The translations under genes and the position numbers were made by a program. Positions 1 to 8,200 of a stretch of 11,596 bases of DNA are shown in pieces. The stretch lies in the IMG/VR virus record IMGVR_UViG_2740892036_000005, positions 1 to 11,596 of that record; one strand, given 5' to 3'. Below the pieces are notes generated by a model, which saw nothing but the letters and a program-made list of their open reading frames with translations, was not told where the DNA came from and did not search any database. Source of the DNA: a virus. Lineage: Duplodnaviria; Heunggongvirae; Uroviricota; Caudoviricetes. Numbering within the stretch: the stretch's first letter is position 1; every line of letters begins with the position of its first letter.

Positions 1-340
1 GATTAGCTTCTTCCAATAATTAAAATTTTACCAAGCGTTTATGCCTTACAATATGTATTGTATCTCACCGTAAAACATATTTATATGGTTTTAAACCTAT
101 CTGTAAATCTTGACACCTTGGCAAGAACCTAATCCTACATTTTAATATCAATCTATATAATATAGCCAGTGTCATAATAATCGGGCTTGTCATAGTTAAG
201 TATTCTCCTCCGATATCCCAATGAGATAAGCAAGTCATCAGTGTTATAAATGAAAAGATCACATTTTTCAAAGAGTTATTATGATGAAATATTATTCAAA
301 ACGCAATGTAGCTGAAACGAGTCTGAGTTTAACATCCGCT
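1..340. other. AT-rich non-coding flank (module boundary)
   Basis: Base composition drops abruptly to strongly AT-rich compared with the GC-rich tail genes to the right. All three plus frames and all three minus frames have stop codons within the first ~65 nt, so no gene can enter from the left edge with meaningful coding length. The only ORFs are short, hydrophobic/AT-biased and lack a Shine-Dalgarno sequence. A TATAAT hexamer is at 156..161 and TTGACA at 110..115, but the spacing is not canonical. Confidence 0.5.
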
Positions 341-537
341 CCTAGTACATAGCAGTCCTAGGGACAGTGGCATAAAGTCTTAGATGGTCGGTGGGAGGTG
401 GTGGAAATCCCCTCATGCAAAAAACACATAAAATCGATAACAGCTGGAAATCATTCAATACTCGCACTATTGAAAGTTCACCAGCCAGCCGCAGCACGTT
501 CCTGCATACGACGTGTCTGCGGCATATCACAAAACGA

Positions 538-720
538 TTACTCCATAACAGGGACAGCAGGCCACTCAATATCCGGTGCAGTTGATGTATCAACACGGTT
601 CAGCAACACCCGATACTTTTTCCATGCGGCCAGTAACGCTTTCTCTTCCTCCGTTGCGATTTCCAGCTCAACAACAGTCTGAACGTACCGGGAACAGCCT
701 CCTTCAGAGCTTGAAGGATA
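538..720 (-). pseudogene. tfa: 3' remnant of tail fibre assembly gene (tfa), no start codon
   Basis: Manual translation of the minus strand immediately after the stf stop (TGA, 721..723), in the same frame, gives 60 sense codons ending in TAA (538..540): [60 protein letters not shown]. The last ~43 residues (about 541..670) match, from memory, the conserved C-terminus of lambda/Rac/e14-type Tfa proteins (the ...[22 protein letters not shown]... motif). There is no ATG/GTG/TTG start with an RBS and the N-terminal ~150 codons of a normal tfa are absent. The ORF track does not list it because it has no start. Confidence 0.55.
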
Positions 721-3700
721 TCAATGTTCGCTTCCTGTTAACTGCCGGACAAGTGCAACCAGTTCGCTTACCTGATTTTCCAGAGTGCTGATCCGGGTGT
801 CTGCTGTTGCCAGATTTTCACGTAGCGTTGTGTTTTCCTCTTCCAGCGCGGTAACGCGATCATCTGTTTCACGGGCGACCTGAACAAGTAAACCCGTCAC
901 GGCGGCGTAGTCAACATTAAGATAGCGCGTTTCTTCGCGTAGCTCGTTGCCGTCAACGGTCGGGCCTTGCAACTCTTCACCGTAATGGATGAATGAACCA
1001 ACGGCCTCCGGGATGGCCTCTTCAACTTCCTGGGCTATAACCCCGGCGCAATGTGCCCCATTCTCCTTGAGCGTGTACGTGTATCCATTAATTTTGCGGA
1101 TTGCGTCAGTCGCGTTATCGATAATCTCGATATTTTCTTTCAGTCTGCGGTCTGATGACTGATTCAGTGTGGTGCAGTTAACACTTCCGTTTACAGTAAG
1201 GTTTTGCCCGTCTGTTGTTTTTTGCGCATAAAACAGATACGCAGCAGACGTGCCAACCTCAAAAACGTTTTGTCGAGTACTGGAACCCCACACCCTGACA
1301 GAAAACGGTAGTTCTGCATTACCTGAGTTCTGTAAAACAAAACGATTACCAGTCCCTGATTGCTTTGTAAGGGTTAAATCAACGGTTGAGTTAACCTCAT
1401 TCCTGTTGATAGTGAGCGCCTGCGCTGTAGCCCCGTTAACAGCACCTGTTTTGAGTTGAACCGCGCCGTCATTACCATTTAACAGTATCTCAGCTCCGCT
1501 AAAGAAATTTTTTAGCGACAGCATCTTACTTACGCCGACTGATGAACCCAACGCCCACGCGAGAGAATTACCGGTGCTATCAAACCCACGTACAAAGCAA
1601 TCCATTTTGCTATAGTCTGACGTGCTTCCAAGGACATCAATCCGCCCTCCGCCAGATTTTACCGGACTAGATGTGGTTAACGACCTGACAGTTATATCCT
1701 GATTCCATCCGGAAACAACAACCTGACTCCACGCTGTCCAGTTTCCATTAACAACAAAGCGAACGTATATACGTTTTGTGTCGCTGTTAATCAGCGTTTG
1801 CATGTTCGCATAATCTGAATCCCTAACCTTACGAGTCGATTCAACACGGAGCAAAAAGTTACCTGTTACGCCGTCAGGCTTGTTGGTGATATTTGCACCA
1901 CCTGCAGAGGATGGACAAATATAGTATTTAACTGCCCCGGCATCTGACTTGATGATGGTCAGGTTGTTAAGATTAACCGTCTGGCCGTCAATGTTTTCCG
2001 GCTCGATGGCTCCTGCTATCCCGGCACTGAACGTAGCAACGGCTGAAAACGCTGTCGTACCTTTGAAAGCCAGTTGACCACCAATCGTTAATCCCTTGTC
2101 GAGTTTCGCTTGCGTGATCAATTTGCTGTTTTGTTTCTGATCAGGACTCTCACCAAAAGCCAGATCCCCATTAGTATCAATTCCAAGATACTTTGGGTTC
2201 ACGTTGTCTAACTTAAACCCAATGGACACATTTTCAGAAGAACCAGAACGCGTTAAAACTAACGGCGTGTGCTGTACTCCATAGATGCTTAGCGTAGTTG
2301 CCGATGAGCCAGTGTCGGTATTTGCAATCTCAATCGTTCTGCTTTTAATTTTATACGCTACTGTGAGATCACGGACTTCAACCCTCCCGTCGTGACGAAC
2401 AACAAGATCCCCTCCTGATGTCCCCCCTGCTGTCTTTGCCCTGATGCGAACTTCGCCAAGCGAATCAGTGTTAGGACCAGCATAGATTATGCCGCGCTCT
2501 GTGTTATCGCCAGTATAAAACCGCAAAGCGGTGACTCCACTGTCTGCCCGCAGGAAGACTGACGGTGTACCTTTTTTGATTGTCAAGTCACCGGTCATTG
2601 TATCGCCGGTTTTTTTTACCTGCGCATCGTTCGTTACGTTGCCAAGTCCAACATCCGATTTCGACGGCTTGTTTGCCGAGCCGTATAGCTCATTGATGCT
2701 AAAAGTCCCGTTGTTAAGCCGGGCATCGTTGCCGGCATAGATCTTAATCTTCGCGGTTGAGTAGTCGATATTGATCGCTGACCACGTATCGCCGCACCGC
2801 GAGAATATACCAGAACCGTGGCTATAAATGGTCGCCGTGCTTCCGGTCGGCTTATCACCGCGCCAGAAATGACCACCTTTGTCACGCAGAGCTTTTAAGA
2901 TCTCTACATCGCTCATCTTGCCGTTTGTTGATATCCCGCTACCGCCAAGACCGAAAGCGCCTGTAAGCATAGCATTAGAAAGACCCAAATCTGCTTTAGT
3001 CGGCTTGTTTAACTGGTCGTAAATCCTTACAACGGGGCTTTCAACATATCCAGAAGGCGCGGCGGTTTGCTTAACAAATCCGTCTGGAATGTATAATTCC
3101 GTGCGTGCCGTCTGCGCCAGTACCGCAACCTTTGCGCCGTTGATAAATGCACGCTGGAAGGCCCAAACCTCAATAAAGCCATCATCTTTAACCAGGCCGT
3201 AACGCATTTGCATGCTATTGATTAGCCCGGTTGGCCCTAAACGGCGTATACTCAGGTAACGAGATACATTATCAGCAGTAAGCGAAGAAGGCAGACCGCG
3301 CGCCGAGATCTCGATAAAGTCAATGTTTCCGTAAGGGGAGCCGTAGTCACCGCCGTTAGTAACCATTAGCGTTACATGGCAATTGTTGCTTCCGGGATCG
3401 GAAAGTTTCGCGATCTTTATGTAAAAAGACTCATTACCAGTAACAACGGGCCAATCGTATTGCGTCATCGGGCTGACGAGTCCCCCGACCTTGTCGAGAT
3501 ATTCTTTCGCCTTGTTCTCTGACGCTTTAGCGTTGGTTTCGCTGACCTTTGCTGCTGACTCACTATTTTTCGCGTTGGTTTCTGATTTTTTGGCTGCTGT
3601 CGCGGAATTTGCCGATGCAGTTTGTGAGTCTGCTGCCGCCTGTGCGCTGTTATCCGCATTCATCTCAGACGTTTTTGCGGCCTTCGCGGAATTTCCTGCC

Positions 3701-4497
3701 GCCGTTGCCGAGGAAGCTGCACTGCCGGCGCTCGAGGCTGCGCTCGTTTCTGATGATTTTGCCGCCACTTTTGAAGCCGACGCATCCCGGGCTGAGGTGG
3801 CAGCTTCTGACGCTTTCGTGGTCGCGGTGGATGCAGAAGTGGCCGCAGATTTTTGTGATGCTGCGGCATTCGTTTCTGACGTTTTCGCTGCACCGGCACT
3901 GGTGGCTGCCGCGCTTTTTGAAGACTCTGCAGCGGCAGCACTTTTTGATGCTTCAGTAGCCTTTGCTGATGCCGTTCCTGCGCTGGAAGACGCTGACTGA
4001 GCCGACGACGCGGCCTGTCCGGCTGACGTGCTGGCTGCGCGTGCTGAGTCTGCAGCATCAGTCGCATGGGTTGCCGCCTCACGGGCAGATGTGCCGGCAT
4101 CGCTGGCTGACTTCTTTGCGGCTGCCGTGTTCTGTGCCACTGCGGACGCGTTACGCGCCACCTCTTCCACCATCAGCTCAAAACGGCGCAGTGCCTCCGG
4201 ACGGGCATCATCCTCCGTCATGGCACCGAGAAAATCATTCAGCGTACCGGGTTGAGAATCTTCATACACGGTGATGGTCCCGGCATGTGACGGCGGGAAT
4301 CCTTCCACCAACAGAATAACGCTGTACTGACCGTACTCAACGTCCATGCTGTAACGCCCGGCTTCATCCGGATTTTCTGAGGCCAGCGTGTTCACCACCA
4401 CCGTGGTGCTGTTACGTTTTGCTTTCAGCTGGATTGTGCAGTTCTGTACCGGTTTTCCTGTGCCGTCTTTCAGTACACCTGAAATCTTTACTGCCAT
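721..4497 (-). CDS. stf: Side tail fibre protein (lambda Stf-like N-terminus, Ala/Ser-rich repeat shaft, distal fibre region, C-terminal S74 intramolecular chaperone)
   Basis: ORF 721..4503 (1260 aa). The likely true start is the ATG at 4495..4497, giving MAVKISGVLKDGTGKPVQNCTIQLKAK..., the N-terminus I recognise from lambda Stf and the StfR/StfQ family; the GTG at 4503 is an upstream in-frame alternative. Stop is TGA at 721..723. The protein contains tail-fibre motifs (KPSKSDVGLGNVTNDAQVKKTGDTMTGDLTI). It follows lom, as stf does in lambda. Confidence 0.88.
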   Translation of the reverse strand: MAVKISGVLKDGTGKPVQNCTIQLKAKRNSTTVVVNTLASENPDEAGRYSMDVEYGQYSVILLVEGFPPSHAGTITVYEDSQPGTLNDFLGAMTEDDARPEALRRFELMVEEVARNASAVAQNTAAAKKSASDAGTSAREAATHATDAADSARAASTSAGQAASSAQSASSSAGTASAKATEASKSAAAAESSKSAAATSAGAAKTSETNAAASQKSAATSASTATTKASEAATSARDASASKVAAKSSETSAASSAGSAASSATAAGNSAKAAKTSEMNADNSAQAAADSQTASANSATAAKKSETNAKNSESAAKVSETNAKASENKAKEYLDKVGGLVSPMTQYDWPVVTGNESFYIKIAKLSDPGSNNCHVTLMVTNGGDYGSPYGNIDFIEISARGLPSSLTADNVSRYLSIRRLGPTGLINSMQMRYGLVKDDGFIEVWAFQRAFINGAKVAVLAQTARTELYIPDGFVKQTAAPSGYVESPVVRIYDQLNKPTKADLGLSNAMLTGAFGLGGSGISTNGKMSDVEILKALRDKGGHFWRGDKPTGSTATIYSHGSGIFSRCGDTWSAINIDYSTAKIKIYAGNDARLNNGTFSINELYGSANKPSKSDVGLGNVTNDAQVKKTGDTMTGDLTIKKGTPSVFLRADSGVTALRFYTGDNTERGIIYAGPNTDSLGEVRIRAKTAGGTSGGDLVVRHDGRVEVRDLTVAYKIKSRTIEIANTDTGSSATTLSIYGVQHTPLVLTRSGSSENVSIGFKLDNVNPKYLGIDTNGDLAFGESPDQKQNSKLITQAKLDKGLTIGGQLAFKGTTAFSAVATFSAGIAGAIEPENIDGQTVNLNNLTIIKSDAGAVKYYICPSSAGGANITNKPDGVTGNFLLRVESTRKVRDSDYANMQTLINSDTKRIYVRFVVNGNWTAWSQVVVSGWNQDITVRSLTTSSPVKSGGGRIDVLGSTSDYSKMDCFVRGFDSTGNSLAWALGSSVGVSKMLSLKNFFSGAEILLNGNDGAVQLKTGAVNGATAQALTINRNEVNSTVDLTLTKQSGTGNRFVLQNSGNAELPFSVRVWGSSTRQNVFEVGTSAAYLFYAQKTTDGQNLTVNGSVNCTTLNQSSDRRLKENIEIIDNATDAIRKINGYTYTLKENGAHCAGVIAQEVEEAIPEAVGSFIHYGEELQGPTVDGNELREETRYLNVDYAAVTGLLVQVARETDDRVTALEEENTTLRENLATADTRISTLENQVSELVALVRQLTGSEH
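724..1152 (-). other. Peptidase S74-type C-terminal intramolecular chaperone domain of the tail fibre (predicted autocleavage at Ser|Asp, codons 1153..1155 | 1150..1152)
   Basis: The last 143 residues are ...NQSS|DRRLKENIEIIDNATDAIRKINGYTYTLKENGAHCAGVIAQEVEEAIPEAVGSF... followed by a heptad-like helical tail. The S-D-x-R-x-K-x-N-I and G-V-I-A-Q-E-V-E-E-x-I-P-E-x-V signatures are characteristic of the self-cleaving chaperone domain of endosialidases and of phage tail fibres/spikes such as T5 pb1 (Pfam Peptidase_S74 family). This is a motif-level call made from memory. Confidence 0.7.
3500..4160 (-). repeat. Degenerate ~42-nt (14-codon) tandem repeat array encoding the Ala/Ser/Thr/Lys-rich fibre shaft
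   Basis: Protein residues ~115-335 of Stf read as 14-aa periodic units (AKTSETNAAASQKS / AATSASTATTKASE / AATSARDASASKVA / AKSSETSAASSAGS ...). The plus-strand DNA shows recurring gtttctga(c/t)g(c/t)ttt(c/t)gc-type units. It also generates a spurious Ala/Phe-rich antisense ORF (3491..4000 plus). Confidence 0.65.
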
Positions 4498-4508
4498 ATT
4501 CACCCCAC

Positions 4509-4535
4509 AAAAAAGCCCGCCTGAACCGGCGGGCT
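4509..4535 (-). terminator. Intrinsic terminator downstream of lom (between lom and stf)
   Basis: On the minus strand: AGCCCGCC-GGUUCA-GGCGGGCU followed by UUUUUU. This is a perfect 8-bp GC-rich stem (plus 4514..4521 pairing with 4528..4535), a 6-nt loop, and a 6-U tract (plus A-run 4509..4514). It lies 26 nt downstream of the lom stop. Confidence 0.65.
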
Positions 4536-4561
4536 GTCATAACACTGTGTTACCTGGCTAA

Positions 4562-5161
4562 TCAGAACTTATAACCGACACCCATGATGAAACCGTCAGT
4601 GCGCCAGTCGCCACTGCCGGAGCCTTCATAAGCAATATCAATGGCCACGGATTCGGTCGGGTTAAACTGCACGCCAGCTCCCCACGCCAGAGACGTGTTG
4701 CTGTGGCGACCGTCATCACTTCCGGTCAGCACATCGTGCGTTTTCCCCTTGTTGTCAGTTACGCGGAGATAATCCCCGGAGAAAGTCGACACACGGCTGT
4801 AAGCCACACCCGCCATCGCATACGCGCTGAACCATTCATTCACGCGCACAGACGGCCCCGCCATCACGCTGAACCAGCGGTTACGCACGGAATCCTCATG
4901 CCAGCGGGTATCGCTGTAATGCGTTTTTTGCTCATCTTCAGCGTTGGCATAACTGAATGACGTAATCAGCCCCAGCGTGTCCGTAAACTCATAACGGTAT
5001 TTCACGTTAATCCCGTTCAGATCATCACTACCGGGAACGTTCGTCGAGGCATGAAGATACCCTGCGCTCAGTGTGGCCTGCTGCTCAGACGCCCATGCAG
5101 GCGCACCGGATACGGCCAGACAGATGGCTGCGGACAAAATGGCTGCACAAACTTTACGCAT
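4562..5161 (-). CDS. lom: Lom-like outer membrane protein (Ail/Lom/PagC/Rck family beta-barrel)
   Basis: 199 aa, ATG at 5159..5161 with a GAGAGG Shine-Dalgarno sequence upstream. It has an N-terminal signal peptide (MRKVCAAILSAAICLAVSGAPAWA|SEQ) and the family C-terminus ...DIAYEGSGSGDWRTDGFIMGVGYKF that I recognise from lambda Lom. Its position between J and stf is the same as in lambda. Confidence 0.9.
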   Translation of the reverse strand: MRKVCAAILSAAICLAVSGAPAWASEQQATLSAGYLHASTNVPGSDDLNGINVKYRYEFTDTLGLITSFSYANAEDEQKTHYSDTRWHEDSVRNRWFSVMAGPSVRVNEWFSAYAMAGVAYSRVSTFSGDYLRVTDNKGKTHDVLTGSDDGRHSNTSLAWGAGVQFNPTESVAIDIAYEGSGSGDWRTDGFIMGVGYKF

Positions 5162-5185: not shown

Positions 5186-5210
5186 AAAAAAGGCGCCAGA
5201 AATGGCGCCC
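5186..5210 (-). terminator. Intrinsic terminator-like hairpin between J and lom
   Basis: On the minus strand: GGCGCCA-UUUC-UGGCGCC followed by UUUUUU (stem plus 5192..5198 / 5203..5209; U-tract from plus A-run 5186..5191). It starts 19 nt downstream of the J stop and ends 24 nt upstream of the lom ATG. Confidence 0.55.
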
Positions 5211-5228: not shown

Positions 5229-8200
5229 TCAGCTGATACTGATACCTGCTGTGGATTTCTTCATCACCACAACCAGCAAATCACTGATACTGGCTGTGGG
5301 ATACCAGTCATTTACCAGCCACGCTGATACCGAAAACTCCAGCGTCATGTGACCGCGACCAGCAGGCATATCAATAACACCTGTATAAACCAGCGTATTA
5401 TCCAGCGCGGTACGGTTATAAATTTCAGCACCGTTTTTCTTCACCATCAGGCGGCATGACGAATAAATATCGTTATTCTCCCGCTCATGTTTAGCGCCAC
5501 GAAACGCCACCGCGGGAATAACAATCTGCCGGTCAAACGGCTGATCGTCATAAACCCTGACGGTAATGGTCCCTGATGGCCACCGCTCCGGTGCACGGGA
5601 GTCCCGGGGGAAAGCTTTGCCCACTGTTTTAACGAGATCGCCTTCAATCTGGTTCGCAGACAGTTTTCCCAGAACCCGACAGTTCTCGTTAATCGTGACG
5701 TTGTTGAGCGTCCCGGAGTTCGCATTCACGTTACCGCTGATATCGGCATTTTTCGCCGTCAGCCGCCCGTCCGGTGTCAGGGAAAATACCGGAGGATTAC
5801 CGCCGCTGGTAATGGTGGGAGCCGTCAGGCGTTTCAGGAACACTTCGTTCATGAATATCTGATCGCCCTGACCAACAAACATCGGCTTTGTGTTGCCATT
5901 CGCAGGATTAATCATCGCAATCCTGTCTGCCGCCAGCAGCACCTGACTCTGCATGCCGTCAGGGGTGTTCTCAATACCGGCACCAATACCCGCGATATAA
6001 AGGCGTCCGTCCTGCATCTGCTGCAGCTTCACAGCCCACATGCTGTTCAGGTTATTATTTGTATCAACCTGAACCTTCTGTATCTGCTGAATTGCCGCAC
6101 TCTGGTCTTCCAGTTTCTTATTGACGGTCTGTGTGATTTCATTGCTGACATCCGTAATGGATGTCCTGATTTCAGCCAGGTCAGGCGCAAGCTGACCGTT
6201 ATCAATCTGCGTCCACAGCTCCTGAGCCAGATGGGTTTTCCCTATCTCGCCTTTGAAAAAATCCAGATAGCCGGATGCGTCATCACTCGGCTGACCAACA
6301 GCCTCCACGAATGCCGATTTGCCAACGGTGTTCACACTGCGAACGTAAAAATAATAATTATGGCCCGGCCTGATATTGATACTGGCGGCTATCCAGTACA
6401 GCGCCGTGCCAAGATAGCGTGCTGTGGTTTCAACCTGCCTGATATCCGCAATCCGCTTTTCCGAGAACCAGAACTCAAACTGTACCGTCGGATCATAAAC
6501 CGCAAGATGCGGCGTGGCGGTTATCTGAAAATAGCCCGGCGTCAGCTCAATCCGCGACGGCGCTGCCGGTGCGGCAATCCGGAACGATACCGACGCCGGA
6601 TCGCCCTGCTGTCCCCACGCATTTACCGCCCGGACTGTCAGCCTGTAGTTTCCCAGCGCCAGCTGCGTGAAGCGGTATGTGGTTTCCGTCGTCCTGGCTG
6701 TGCTGACCAGCCGCTCACTGCCGTCATCCGCTGTCACGGTCAGACGGAGCAGGAAGCTCACGCCCTTCACCACCTTCGGTGTGTCCCAGCGCGCCAGAAC
6801 CTGATATTCCCCGCTGTCTGCGGTGACTTCGGCGGTCAGGTGCTGCACCGCTGGCGGCGTGACACCATTCACCGTGCCGCTCTGGTCGCCGTCAAAGTGC
6901 GCCCCGTTATCCACGATGGCCTCTTTTTCCGGTACATGCTGCACGGCGGTGATGGCATACGTACCGTCATCGTTCTCACGGATACTCACACAGCGGAACA
7001 GGCGCTGGCGCAGCGTCGGCAGCTTCAGCCCCCACACGCTGTATTCGGCAACGCCGTCAGGAACACGGCTCACTTTCACCTTCACGCCGTCGGTGACGGA
7101 CTGGACCTCCACGCTGACCGGATTGCCATTTCCGTCAACCAGGCTTATCAGCGTGGTTCCGGAGGATGGCAGCATGATTTCACGGTCGAGCGTCAGTGTC
7201 CGGGTCTGGCTGTTTACCGCAAGCACGCGCCCGCCGACGCTGATACCCGCATAGTCATCATCGCAGATTTCAATGACATCGCCCGGTACATGGCGAAGCC
7301 CTTCTGCGCCCACGCTGAAGTCCACAGTCTGCGTTTCCAGCAGCTCCGTTTTAATCAGCCACAGCCCGGCGCGGTGTGCCTGCCCCCGGCTGGTACAGCC
7401 AAAGGCATCCATCTTCGTGACGTTACGACCGTAACGGGCAATGGCCTGCGTGTCCTCCACAAGCTCTGTTGCCGTCTCCCAGCCGTTGTCCGGGTCAATC
7501 CAGTTCACCTCAACGGCATTATGGCGGTCCTTCAGGGCGCTGAAGCTGTAGCGGAACGGCGCGTCATCATCCGGCATCACCACATTACTGCGGTTATAGG
7601 TCCACACCTTATCCGACGGTCGGTCCTGCACGAACGTCAGCGTCTGCCCGTTCCATACCGGCATACAGCGCATCGCCGAGCAGAAATCACTGAGCACATC
7701 CCACGCCTTTCGCTGTGTGGTCAGGTAGGCATTACAGGTGATGCGCGGCTCCGTGCCGCCAAAACCGTCCGGCACCGACTGGTCGCAATACTGGCCGATG
7801 ACATACAGCGCCCATTTGTCCACATCCGCCGCACCAAGACGTTTCCCCATGCCGTAGCGCGGGTGGGTCAGCATATCCCACAGACACCAGGCCGGGTTGT
7901 TGCTGTATGCCGGCTTAAACGTTCCGTCCCAGATACCGCTGTATTGCCGCGTCTGCGGGTTATAGTTCGACGGCACCTGCAGAATGCGCCCGCGAAGATG
8001 ATAATTACGGCTCACCTGCTGGCTGCCGAACTGCTCCGAGTCCACCTGCACGCCGACCAGTGCCGTGTTCGGGTAGCACTGTTTCACATCGATGATTTCG
8101 GTGTATGACGACCAGAGCGTTTTGTTCTGCAGCTGGTCTGTGGTGCTGTCCGGCGTCATCCTGCGCATCCGGATATTAAACGGGCGCGGCGGCAGGCTAC

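Follow-up and report, generated by a model that had tools for sequence, protein, structure and literature searches.

A lambda-anchored side tail fibre ending in an S74 chaperone domain, with a truncated tfa behind it, in an Escherichia coli prophage

The stf gene of an apparently complete lambda-like prophage in E. coli EcPF20 encodes a mosaic side tail fibre. As shown by sequence comparison, a lambda-type collar and shaft are followed by a different, multi-module fibre that carries a C-terminal Peptidase_S74 chaperone. We consider it very probable that this Stf chaperones its own folding and does so free of Tfa, and that the tfa stub behind it is a recombination scar. The fibre architecture itself is already known and has been named by NCBI. 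The window analysed is the whole stretch of 11,596 nt; all coordinates refer to it, and the features given with coordinates below lie on its minus strand.

The stf gene is one intact ORF of 1258 codons (721-4497; ORF list and translation) closed by a TGA stop (721-723), and it matches PHROG tail fibre families with E=0. Counted from a GTG, the uninterrupted reading frame spans 721-4503; from the ATG at 4495-4497 the product is 1258 aa long and begins MAVKISGVL, the same start as in the solved lambda Stf N-terminal domain. The strings SDRRLKENIEII and GVIAQEVEEAIPEAV, quoted in an earlier sequence-only reading of this DNA, are both found in the sequence. The prophage adjoins a tRNA-Thr and is annotated with integrase, repressor, lysis, terminase, portal, capsid and tail genes. 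Gene order in the source record is gpJ, Ail/Lom and then the fibre (PGAP), with the identity of Lom backed by OmpX/Ail matches (NCBIfam); stf lies 3′ of J and lom in the lambdoid tail operon, as expected of a Stf gene. A consensus scan placed a terminator-like hairpin between lom and stf (4514-4535), and terminators are annotated at the equivalent place in phages Ayreon and mEp460. Compared with Ayreon, dN/dS is 0.16-0.27 in every segment of stf, and purifying selection, judged by these ratios, acts on all segments, the chaperone included.

The N-terminal collar domain (residues 1-134; window 4096-4497), predicted to attach the fibre to the tail tip, matches PF08400 phage_tail_N (E=1.2e-71, Pfam). 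Residues 1-94 match the lambda Stf structures PDB 9e7m and 9mgh (E=4.7e-52 for 9e7m_Ta) and thus have the collar fold of a lambda-type Stf. In Ur-lambda, the collar round the tail tip is built from twelve copies of the Stf N-terminal domain (PMC12617516). The likeness to lambda extends well beyond the ~110 residues that the sequence-only reading had allotted to a lambda Stf-type N-terminus. The left arm of DNA homology is 87% identical to lambda NC_001416 across 905 nt (3656-4560; BLASTN) and ends at about residue 281, and similarity to the lambda Stf protein covers residues 1-348 (75% aa identity). Within this region lies an Ala/Ser-rich shaft, a predicted proximal trimeric coiled coil (~residues 102-335; window 3493-4194) delimited by autocorrelation and by alignment with lambda orf-401; the lambda proximal coiled coil occupies residues 102-393 (PMC12617516). 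The shaft had been described as periodic at 14 aa. It is periodic, but autocorrelation is strongest at a lag of 7 and at multiples of 7 (z=10.3 versus shuffles; ~residues 105-335), so that 14 is a multiple of the base period and the repeat reads as a heptad coiled coil. Tandem Repeats Finder detected no repeat in the DNA of the shaft region, and the periodicity therefore exists at the protein level only.

The non-lambda distal part comprises ~770 aa and the 144-aa chaperone. In agreement with the earlier description of this region as not lambda-like, it has neither DNA nor protein similarity to lambda stf (BLASTN against NC_001416; orf-314 unmatched). Nothing significant was found in Pfam for residues 341-1114, and neither the fibre nor the tfa stub matched an NCBIfam family. 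A first module (residues 341-503; 2989-3477), covered by ~30 representative clusters, matches PHROG tail fibre families only. The second (residues 504-655; 2533-2988), covered by representative matches, ends in the linker motif NKPSKSDVGLGNVTNDAQVKKTGDTMTGDL, which is widespread in tail fibres and is matched by PHROG long tail fibre families. The third (residues 656-803; 2089-2532) again matches PHROG tail fibre families only and is 50-65% identical to the Ayreon allele. It is followed by an R-pyocin-knob-like domain (residues 804-944, confident core 833-923; window 1666-2088), in which a fold search recovered the knob fold. The NCBIfam library did not reproduce the "pyocin knob" of RefSeq names, which was therefore checked structurally. 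Searching PDB sequences with a profile of this region gave antibody light-chain matches only, which were discarded as spurious. The distal tip module (residues 945-1114; 1156-1665) abuts the predicted cleavage site and is the candidate for the end that binds the receptor. Over the final ~55 aa it is similar to a T4 gp34 fibre element (residues 1059-1109 match 5nxf and 4uxe with E about 2e-7 in a profile search against PDB sequences).

The last 144 of the 1258 residues, at the extreme C-terminus of the fibre, form an S74 intramolecular chaperone domain (residues 1115-1258, 16 kDa; window 724-1155). A C-terminal chaperone of this type had been proposed, with a Pfam search as the check, and the match is strong. 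PF13884 Peptidase_S74 hits residues 1115-1166 of the whole protein (E=2.5e-16, 60.2 bits) and the last 144 aa searched alone (E=1.2e-17, 64.3 bits), in both cases far above the curated cut-off of 22 bits. An alpha/beta part is followed by a C-terminal coiled coil (~residues 1197-1254), the same layout as in the T5 chaperone (PMC4690869), and coiled-coil family matches fall at residues 1215-1256. In an AlphaFold2 model of residues 880-1258 (24 close homologues; mean pLDDT 35), one long helix at ~1197-1254 is the only part confident enough to be used (pLDDT 72-87).

The serine that had been picked out at codon 1153-1155 is Ser1115, the predicted catalytic and scissile residue. It is the equivalent of T5 Ser1264 (PMC4690869) and aligns with the S16 gp37 motif SSDRRIK and with the Ser-to-Ala position of MYRF. 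Lys1120 (1138-1140), the predicted general base, lies five residues further on in the same SDRRLK motif, with the S-x4-K spacing of Ser1264/Lys1269 in T5 pb1. This Ser/Lys pair is invariant in all 120 of 120 related protein clusters. T5 pb1 combines its Ser1264/Lys1269 pair with a coiled-coil chaperone, and its binding site is unmasked after cleavage (PMC4690869); Arg/Asp sensor residues have also been described for T5. A processed fibre ~143 aa shorter than the ORF had been expected, and 143 aa do come after Ser1115. The released length is probably 144 aa instead, because the cut falls N-terminal to the Ser in the T5 pb1 and K1F precedents and would by analogy fall before Ser1115 here.

Downstream of stf are the last 48 codons of a lambda-type tfa (residues 147-194) and its stop (538-684; tblastn, PGAP), 81% identical to lambda Tfa (E=9e-22, tblastn). 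The remnant has no start codon and only part of the two-domain Tfa, as the N-terminal fibre-binding domain is missing; PGAP calls it a pseudogene with a missing N-terminus. In Tfa, it is the N-terminal domain that binds the fibre (PMC7291167, citing North et al.). Since this is exactly the part deleted, the stub is expected to be non-functional. Lambda DNA homology is limited to 4560-3656 and 683-489 (BLASTN), and the latter, right arm takes in the tfa 3′ end and ~50 nt beyond it (489-683; 87.7% over 195 nt against NC_001416). A gp37-like distal tip and a full-length Tfa, both features of lambda-type Stf systems, are absent. Thus, stf is a lambda-type Stf by anchor and shaft only, because similarity to orf-314 is lacking and tfa is cut to 48 codons.

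The tfa-stub junction is identical in phages Ayreon, mEp460 and PhiR70_1 and, at a threshold of at least 90% identity, is present in 804 of 5426 complete E. coli genomes. The stub is conserved at 95-100% identity across hundreds of genomes, and the same truncated-tfa pseudogene is annotated behind this fibre type at other chromosomal sites. The degraded tfa of the sequence-only reading is therefore a real remnant (541-684), but not a decayed one: random mutational decay was rejected on the identical junction in independent phages and hundreds of genomes, and the remnant is better described as a clean recombination scar. All copies of the stub descend from one cassette, and for this reason its conservation is not independent evidence of function.

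From the precedents of T5 pb1, the K1F endosialidase and MYRF, we infer that the stf product self-cleaves, in the following way. Three C-terminal chaperone domains would associate by way of the coiled coil and seed the folding of the tip into a trimer. Lys1120 would activate Ser1115 only once the trimer is correctly folded, and the chain would then be cut at or beside Ser1115, most likely at the Ser1114/Ser1115 bond. Cleavage would free the 16-kDa fragment, leave a mature fibre of ~116 kDa and probably unmask the receptor-binding end. A Tfa protein would be unnecessary for the folding of such a fibre, because folding is built into it. We count in favour of this presumed Tfa independence that the same truncated tfa lies behind this fibre type in three isolated phages and 804/5426 genomes. 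Another prophage's Tfa, or a host chaperone, may act on the fibre in trans. The fibre is presumably assembled on virions. Both the lytic and the lysogenic cycle are confirmed for phage mEp460 (10.1101/2022.06.30.498228). Because lambda can do without its side fibres (PMC7291167), the viability of Ayreon, mEp460 and PhiR70_1 is no proof of fibre assembly.

The distal module is likely to have entered a lambda-type stf-tfa locus through recombination, with one crossover on the left, within the DNA that encodes the shaft, and one on the right, within the conserved tfa 3′ end. Such an event would have removed the distal stf of lambda together with ~146 codons from the start of tfa, leaving the 48-codon stub as its scar and not as a product of slow decay. 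Side-fibre host range would then be set by modules exchanged between conserved arms. A more specific version of this idea is tentative, and we regard it as possible but rather doubtful: the shaft would serve as the left arm, the C-terminal half of the chaperone with the tfa scar would serve as a universal right arm, and receptor-binding modules would be swapped between them without a matching Tfa. This distal module is covered to at least 80% in only 306 genomes, versus 804 with the junction at 95-100% identity, and a self-contained cassette design would account for a junction that is much commoner than any single distal module and also better conserved. In a stronger form of this cassette reading, the in-frame tfa stub may still be in use, e.g., by UGA read-through.

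Other readings of the locus account for parts of these data. The gene could be a silent relic, with the prophage or its side fibres non-functional as in lambda PaPa, and with the S74 domain and tfa stub as useless leftovers. Such a reading draws on the non-essential nature of side fibres in lambda (PMC7291167), the truncated tfa and the appearance of stf as fragments in RefSeq. We find it unlikely, however, as the 3.8-kb ORF is intact, dN/dS is 0.16-0.27 in each segment, chaperone too, 120 clusters keep the catalytic motif unchanged and the same cassette is carried by three isolated phages; the RefSeq split is an annotation artefact in DNA without a frameshift or stop. A T2/S16 gp37-type fibre, whose tip after C-terminal removal would be capped by a gp38-like adhesin or would need a trans chaperone, is very unlikely. 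Among solved structures, the S74 region is best matched by Salmonella phage S16 gp37, a long tail fibre distal subunit (6f45_A, E=2e-9), and S16 gp37 bears a separate gp38 adhesin at its tip. Yet the match is restricted to the chaperone motif, and the region from the stf stop to avs2 holds only the 48-codon tfa stub, with no gp38-like or other ORF. Ayreon and mEp460 likewise have no gp38-like ORF. A separate gp38-type adhesin was rejected, as there is no candidate gene downstream of stf.

It is highly improbable that the stub still matters, either through TGA read-through that would append the Tfa C-terminal segment to the chaperone or as a small peptide. The stub does lie in the stf frame, 12 sense codons past the TGA, and is 95-100% identical in hundreds of genomes, but an in-frame placement has a one-in-three chance and this conservation reflects single cassette ancestry. 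Moreover, no start codon with a ribosome-binding site stands ahead of the stub, and the Tfa fibre-binding N-terminal domain is absent.

The closest known fibres are the side tail fibres of Escherichia phages Ayreon (ATP61598.1), mEp460 (AFM76057.1), vB_EcoS-640R1 and PhiR70_1, which share both the architecture and the locus (J-lom-stf-tfa stub). The Ayreon fibre is collinear with the stf product over all 1258 residues (82% identity), with allelic divergence of 50-80% in residues ~520-1160 and a recombination breakpoint near residue 520, where dS climbs from 0.02 to 1.0. The mEp460 fibre differs in its middle section (residues ~330-920). Over the distal 918 residues (341-1258), identity is 93-98% for more than 120 database clusters, which also contain PF08400 and PF13884. 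RefSeq relatives are named 'peptidase S74', 'pyocin knob domain-containing S74 family peptidase' or 'prophage tail fiber N-terminal domain and S74 family endopeptidase-containing protein'.

Lambda (Ur-lambda) Stf shares with stf the collar domain, the proximal coiled coil and the place after J and lom. The lambda distal part is gp37-like, binds OmpC and requires Tfa, whereas that of stf is unrelated and S74-ended, with a tfa of 48 codons. T5 pb1 and the K1F endosialidase (MEROPS S74, PF13884) have, like stf, a C-terminal domain of ~130-150 aa with a Ser, a Lys five residues on and a coiled coil, and by analogy the same function, trimer folding followed by self-release, is expected for stf. The receptor-binding part of stf is unrelated to theirs in sequence, and its attachment domain is lambda-type. 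Compared with the knobs of R-type pyocin tail fibres (PDB 6cu2, 6cl6), stf has a single knob inside a far longer fibre, and pyocin fibres rely on a separate chaperone, not an S74 domain. K1F gene 17, the endosialidase, carries an S74 chaperone. Brodel et al. (2024, PMC11338833) used this gene to engineer a lambda Stf(1-528)-K1F fusion, which is functional on lambda particles. Like stf, this chimera joins a lambda Stf N-terminal part to a distal module; it is artificial, with the junction at lambda residue 528 and an endosialidase as its distal part, whereas in stf, a natural analogue, the distal part is of fibre type.

The stf case points to self-chaperoning as a property of a common class of E. 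coli prophage side fibres. S74 side fibres would be convenient natural templates to retarget lambda-based delivery particles, because no partner chaperone needs to be moved along. A single module replacement has left its natural record in the shared tfa scar. The present picture of how tail fibres assemble is not altered by stf, and the practical value is modest.

RefSeq (PGAP) annotates the intact 1258-codon stf of the source strain as two fragments. The DNA of the RefSeq source record is identical and the ORF is likewise intact there, open and without a frameshift or stop, which rules out a real disruption. Mis-annotation as fragments is the type of error that makes prophage-completeness tools underrate an element.

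The window maps to the reverse strand of the E. coli EcPF20 chromosome (NZ_CP071441.1 4074489-4086084) and contains the tail end of a lambda-like prophage, with the minus-strand gene order tape measure, minor tail genes, gpJ, lom and stf. The sole mismatch in 11596 bases, at window 10564 (G in the window, A in RefSeq), falls within the minor tail protein L gene. The prophage begins with an integrase adjoining a tRNA-Thr and looks complete, because repressor, replication, Q, lysis, terminase, portal, capsid and tail genes are present. The side tail fibre gene, stf, lies on the minus strand at window 721-4497, where the ORF list has one uninterrupted ORF (721..4503). The ATG at 4495-4497 gives a protein of 1258 residues, and its opening is identical to the solved lambda Stf N-terminal domain. 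In RefSeq this intact ORF (NZ_CP071441.1 4081588-4085364) is annotated in two pieces, a 267-aa 'tail fiber domain-containing protein' CDS at window 721-1524 plus an N-terminal pseudogene at 4063-4497, and the stretch between them has no annotated feature. The DNA of stf has no frameshift or stop, and thus the split is an annotation artefact. Two terminator-like hairpins, GC-rich and with T runs, flank lom (4562-5161) on the minus strand, at window 4514-4535 and at 5191-5210, and are likewise annotated in the Escherichia phages Ayreon and mEp460. With hairpins on either side of lom, transcription of stf would hinge on read-through of the late transcript.

The N-terminal part of Stf is lambda-like and contains PF08400 (prophage tail fibre N-terminal; residues 1-134, E=1.2e-71). 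A reading made from the sequence only had limited the lambda match to about the first 110 residues, but residues 1-348 align to lambda orf-401 at 75% identity, and the DNA is 87% identical to lambda from window 4560 to 3656. That reading also described a 14-aa periodic, Ala/Ser-rich shaft. The shaft is present at about residues 105-335, but its base period is 7 (z=10.3 vs shuffles), which indicates a coiled coil. It is equivalent to residues 102-393 of Ur-lambda Stf, a proximal trimeric coiled coil that follows the collar of twelve copies formed by residues 1-94 on the tail tip (PMC12617516).

The C-terminal end carries the S74-type chaperone that had been proposed. PF13884 (Peptidase_S74, chaperone of endosialidase) matches residues 1115-1166 of the full protein (E=2.5e-16), and the last 144 residues searched alone, where a missing S74 profile match would have spoken against the proposal, gave E=1.2e-17 and 64 bits vs a threshold of 22. 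The codon at window 1153-1155 (minus strand) encodes the expected serine, Ser1115, and that of Lys1120 is at 1138-1140 (minus strand). The motif QSSDRRLKEN is unchanged in 120/120 related protein clusters retrieved. Within the chaperone domain (residues 1115-1258), the S74 alpha/beta part precedes a predicted coiled coil (about residues 1197-1254), an arrangement also reported for T5 pb1. In T5 pb1 the trimerising chaperone assists folding of the tip, Lys1269 activates Ser1264 only once the trimer has folded correctly, the chain is cut between Thr1263 and Ser1264 so that the serine departs with the chaperone, and chaperone removal unmasks the receptor-binding end (PMC4690869). By analogy with this cut, Stf would most likely be cleaved between Ser1114 and Ser1115, giving a predicted 115.8-kDa mature fibre and a 16.0-kDa fragment of 144 residues. 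The site suggested earlier, S|D with 143 aa released, is an alternative modelled for phi29 and lies one residue away.

Among 1.8 billion representative proteins searched, just 218 clusters are related to residues 341-1114. Cluster coverage divides this region into modules at about residues 341-503, 504-655, 656-803, 804-944 and 945-1114, and residues 1059-1109, in the last ~55 before the predicted cleavage site, are similar to a T4 gp34 element (E about 2e-7). The Ayreon side tail fibre is collinear with Stf at 82% identity. Against Ayreon, dN/dS is 0.16-0.27 in all segments (0.16 in the chaperone), which counts against a dead gene. Near residue 520 (window ~2940) dS climbs from 0.02 to about 1.0, marking a second recombination boundary nested inside the non-lambda part. 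Synonymous divergence falls again after residue ~1160, and identity past residue 1160 is back to at least 90%. Variable modules thus lie between arms that are conserved. Of 5426 complete E. coli genomes, 306 contain the full distal module at a coverage of at least 80%, and 2063 have pieces of it.

Downstream of stf is a stub of tfa, exactly the last 48 codons of the lambda-type gene (tfa residues 147-194; window 541-684, minus strand; 81% identity). The sequence-only reading considered this a degraded tfa; the truncation is real, but gradual decay is countered by an identical stub and junction 3′ of the fibre gene in Ayreon, mEp460 and PhiR70_1, also an Escherichia phage, and by the presence of the 201-nt junction fragment (at least 90% identity) in 804/5426 genomes. 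Since the junction is common to phages and genomes and lambda DNA homology picks up again at window 683-489, the stub is a recombination scar. A single event swapped out the lambda distal stf plus the first ~146 codons of tfa. Annotations at unrelated chromosomal sites list the stub as a tfa pseudogene with a truncated N-terminus. It is in the stf reading frame, with only the TGA stop and 12 sense codons between (window 685-723, minus strand), an arrangement identical in Ayreon and mEp460. The shared frame probably arose by chance (odds of one in three) and was passed on with the cassette.

The fibre-binding domain of Tfa is at the N-terminus (PMC7291167), in the deleted part. Lacking this domain, the stub cannot serve as Tfa. 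Independence of Stf folding from Tfa is supported by this loss, by the viability of mEp460 and by a working fusion to K1F, whose gene 17 carries an S74 chaperone. mEp460 has been confirmed as viable and temperate (10.1101/2022.06.30.498228), and the engineered lambda Stf-K1F fusion is functional on lambda particles (PMC11338833). This falls short of proof because lambda side fibres are dispensable (PMC7291167).

At the level of annotation, this type of fibre is not new. Both Pfam domains are present in more than 120 database clusters that share 93-98% identity across the distal 918 residues (341-1258) and bear the name "peptidase S74" or a similar one, and an NCBI product name spells out exactly the PF08400-type plus S74 architecture. 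Our literature search found no experimental studies of this fibre class. The original observation on stf is confirmed and its interpretation supported with minor corrections; the EcPF20 Stf is an ordinary object.

The slot that follows the tfa scar appears to take variable cargo, because window 1-540 is found in only 87/5426 genomes, far fewer than the stf/tfa-scar junction, and its contents differ between prophages. Others have pinQ or a DinI-like gene, or directly abut sitABCD. In EcPF20, the AVAST type 2 anti-phage gene avs2 lies on the minus strand and starts directly past position 1 of the window, and window 1-340 is an AT-rich (36% GC) region upstream of it. An antisense ORF of 625 codons inside gpJ (window 6231-8108, plus strand), in a stretch of ~60% GC, is most likely a compositional artefact.
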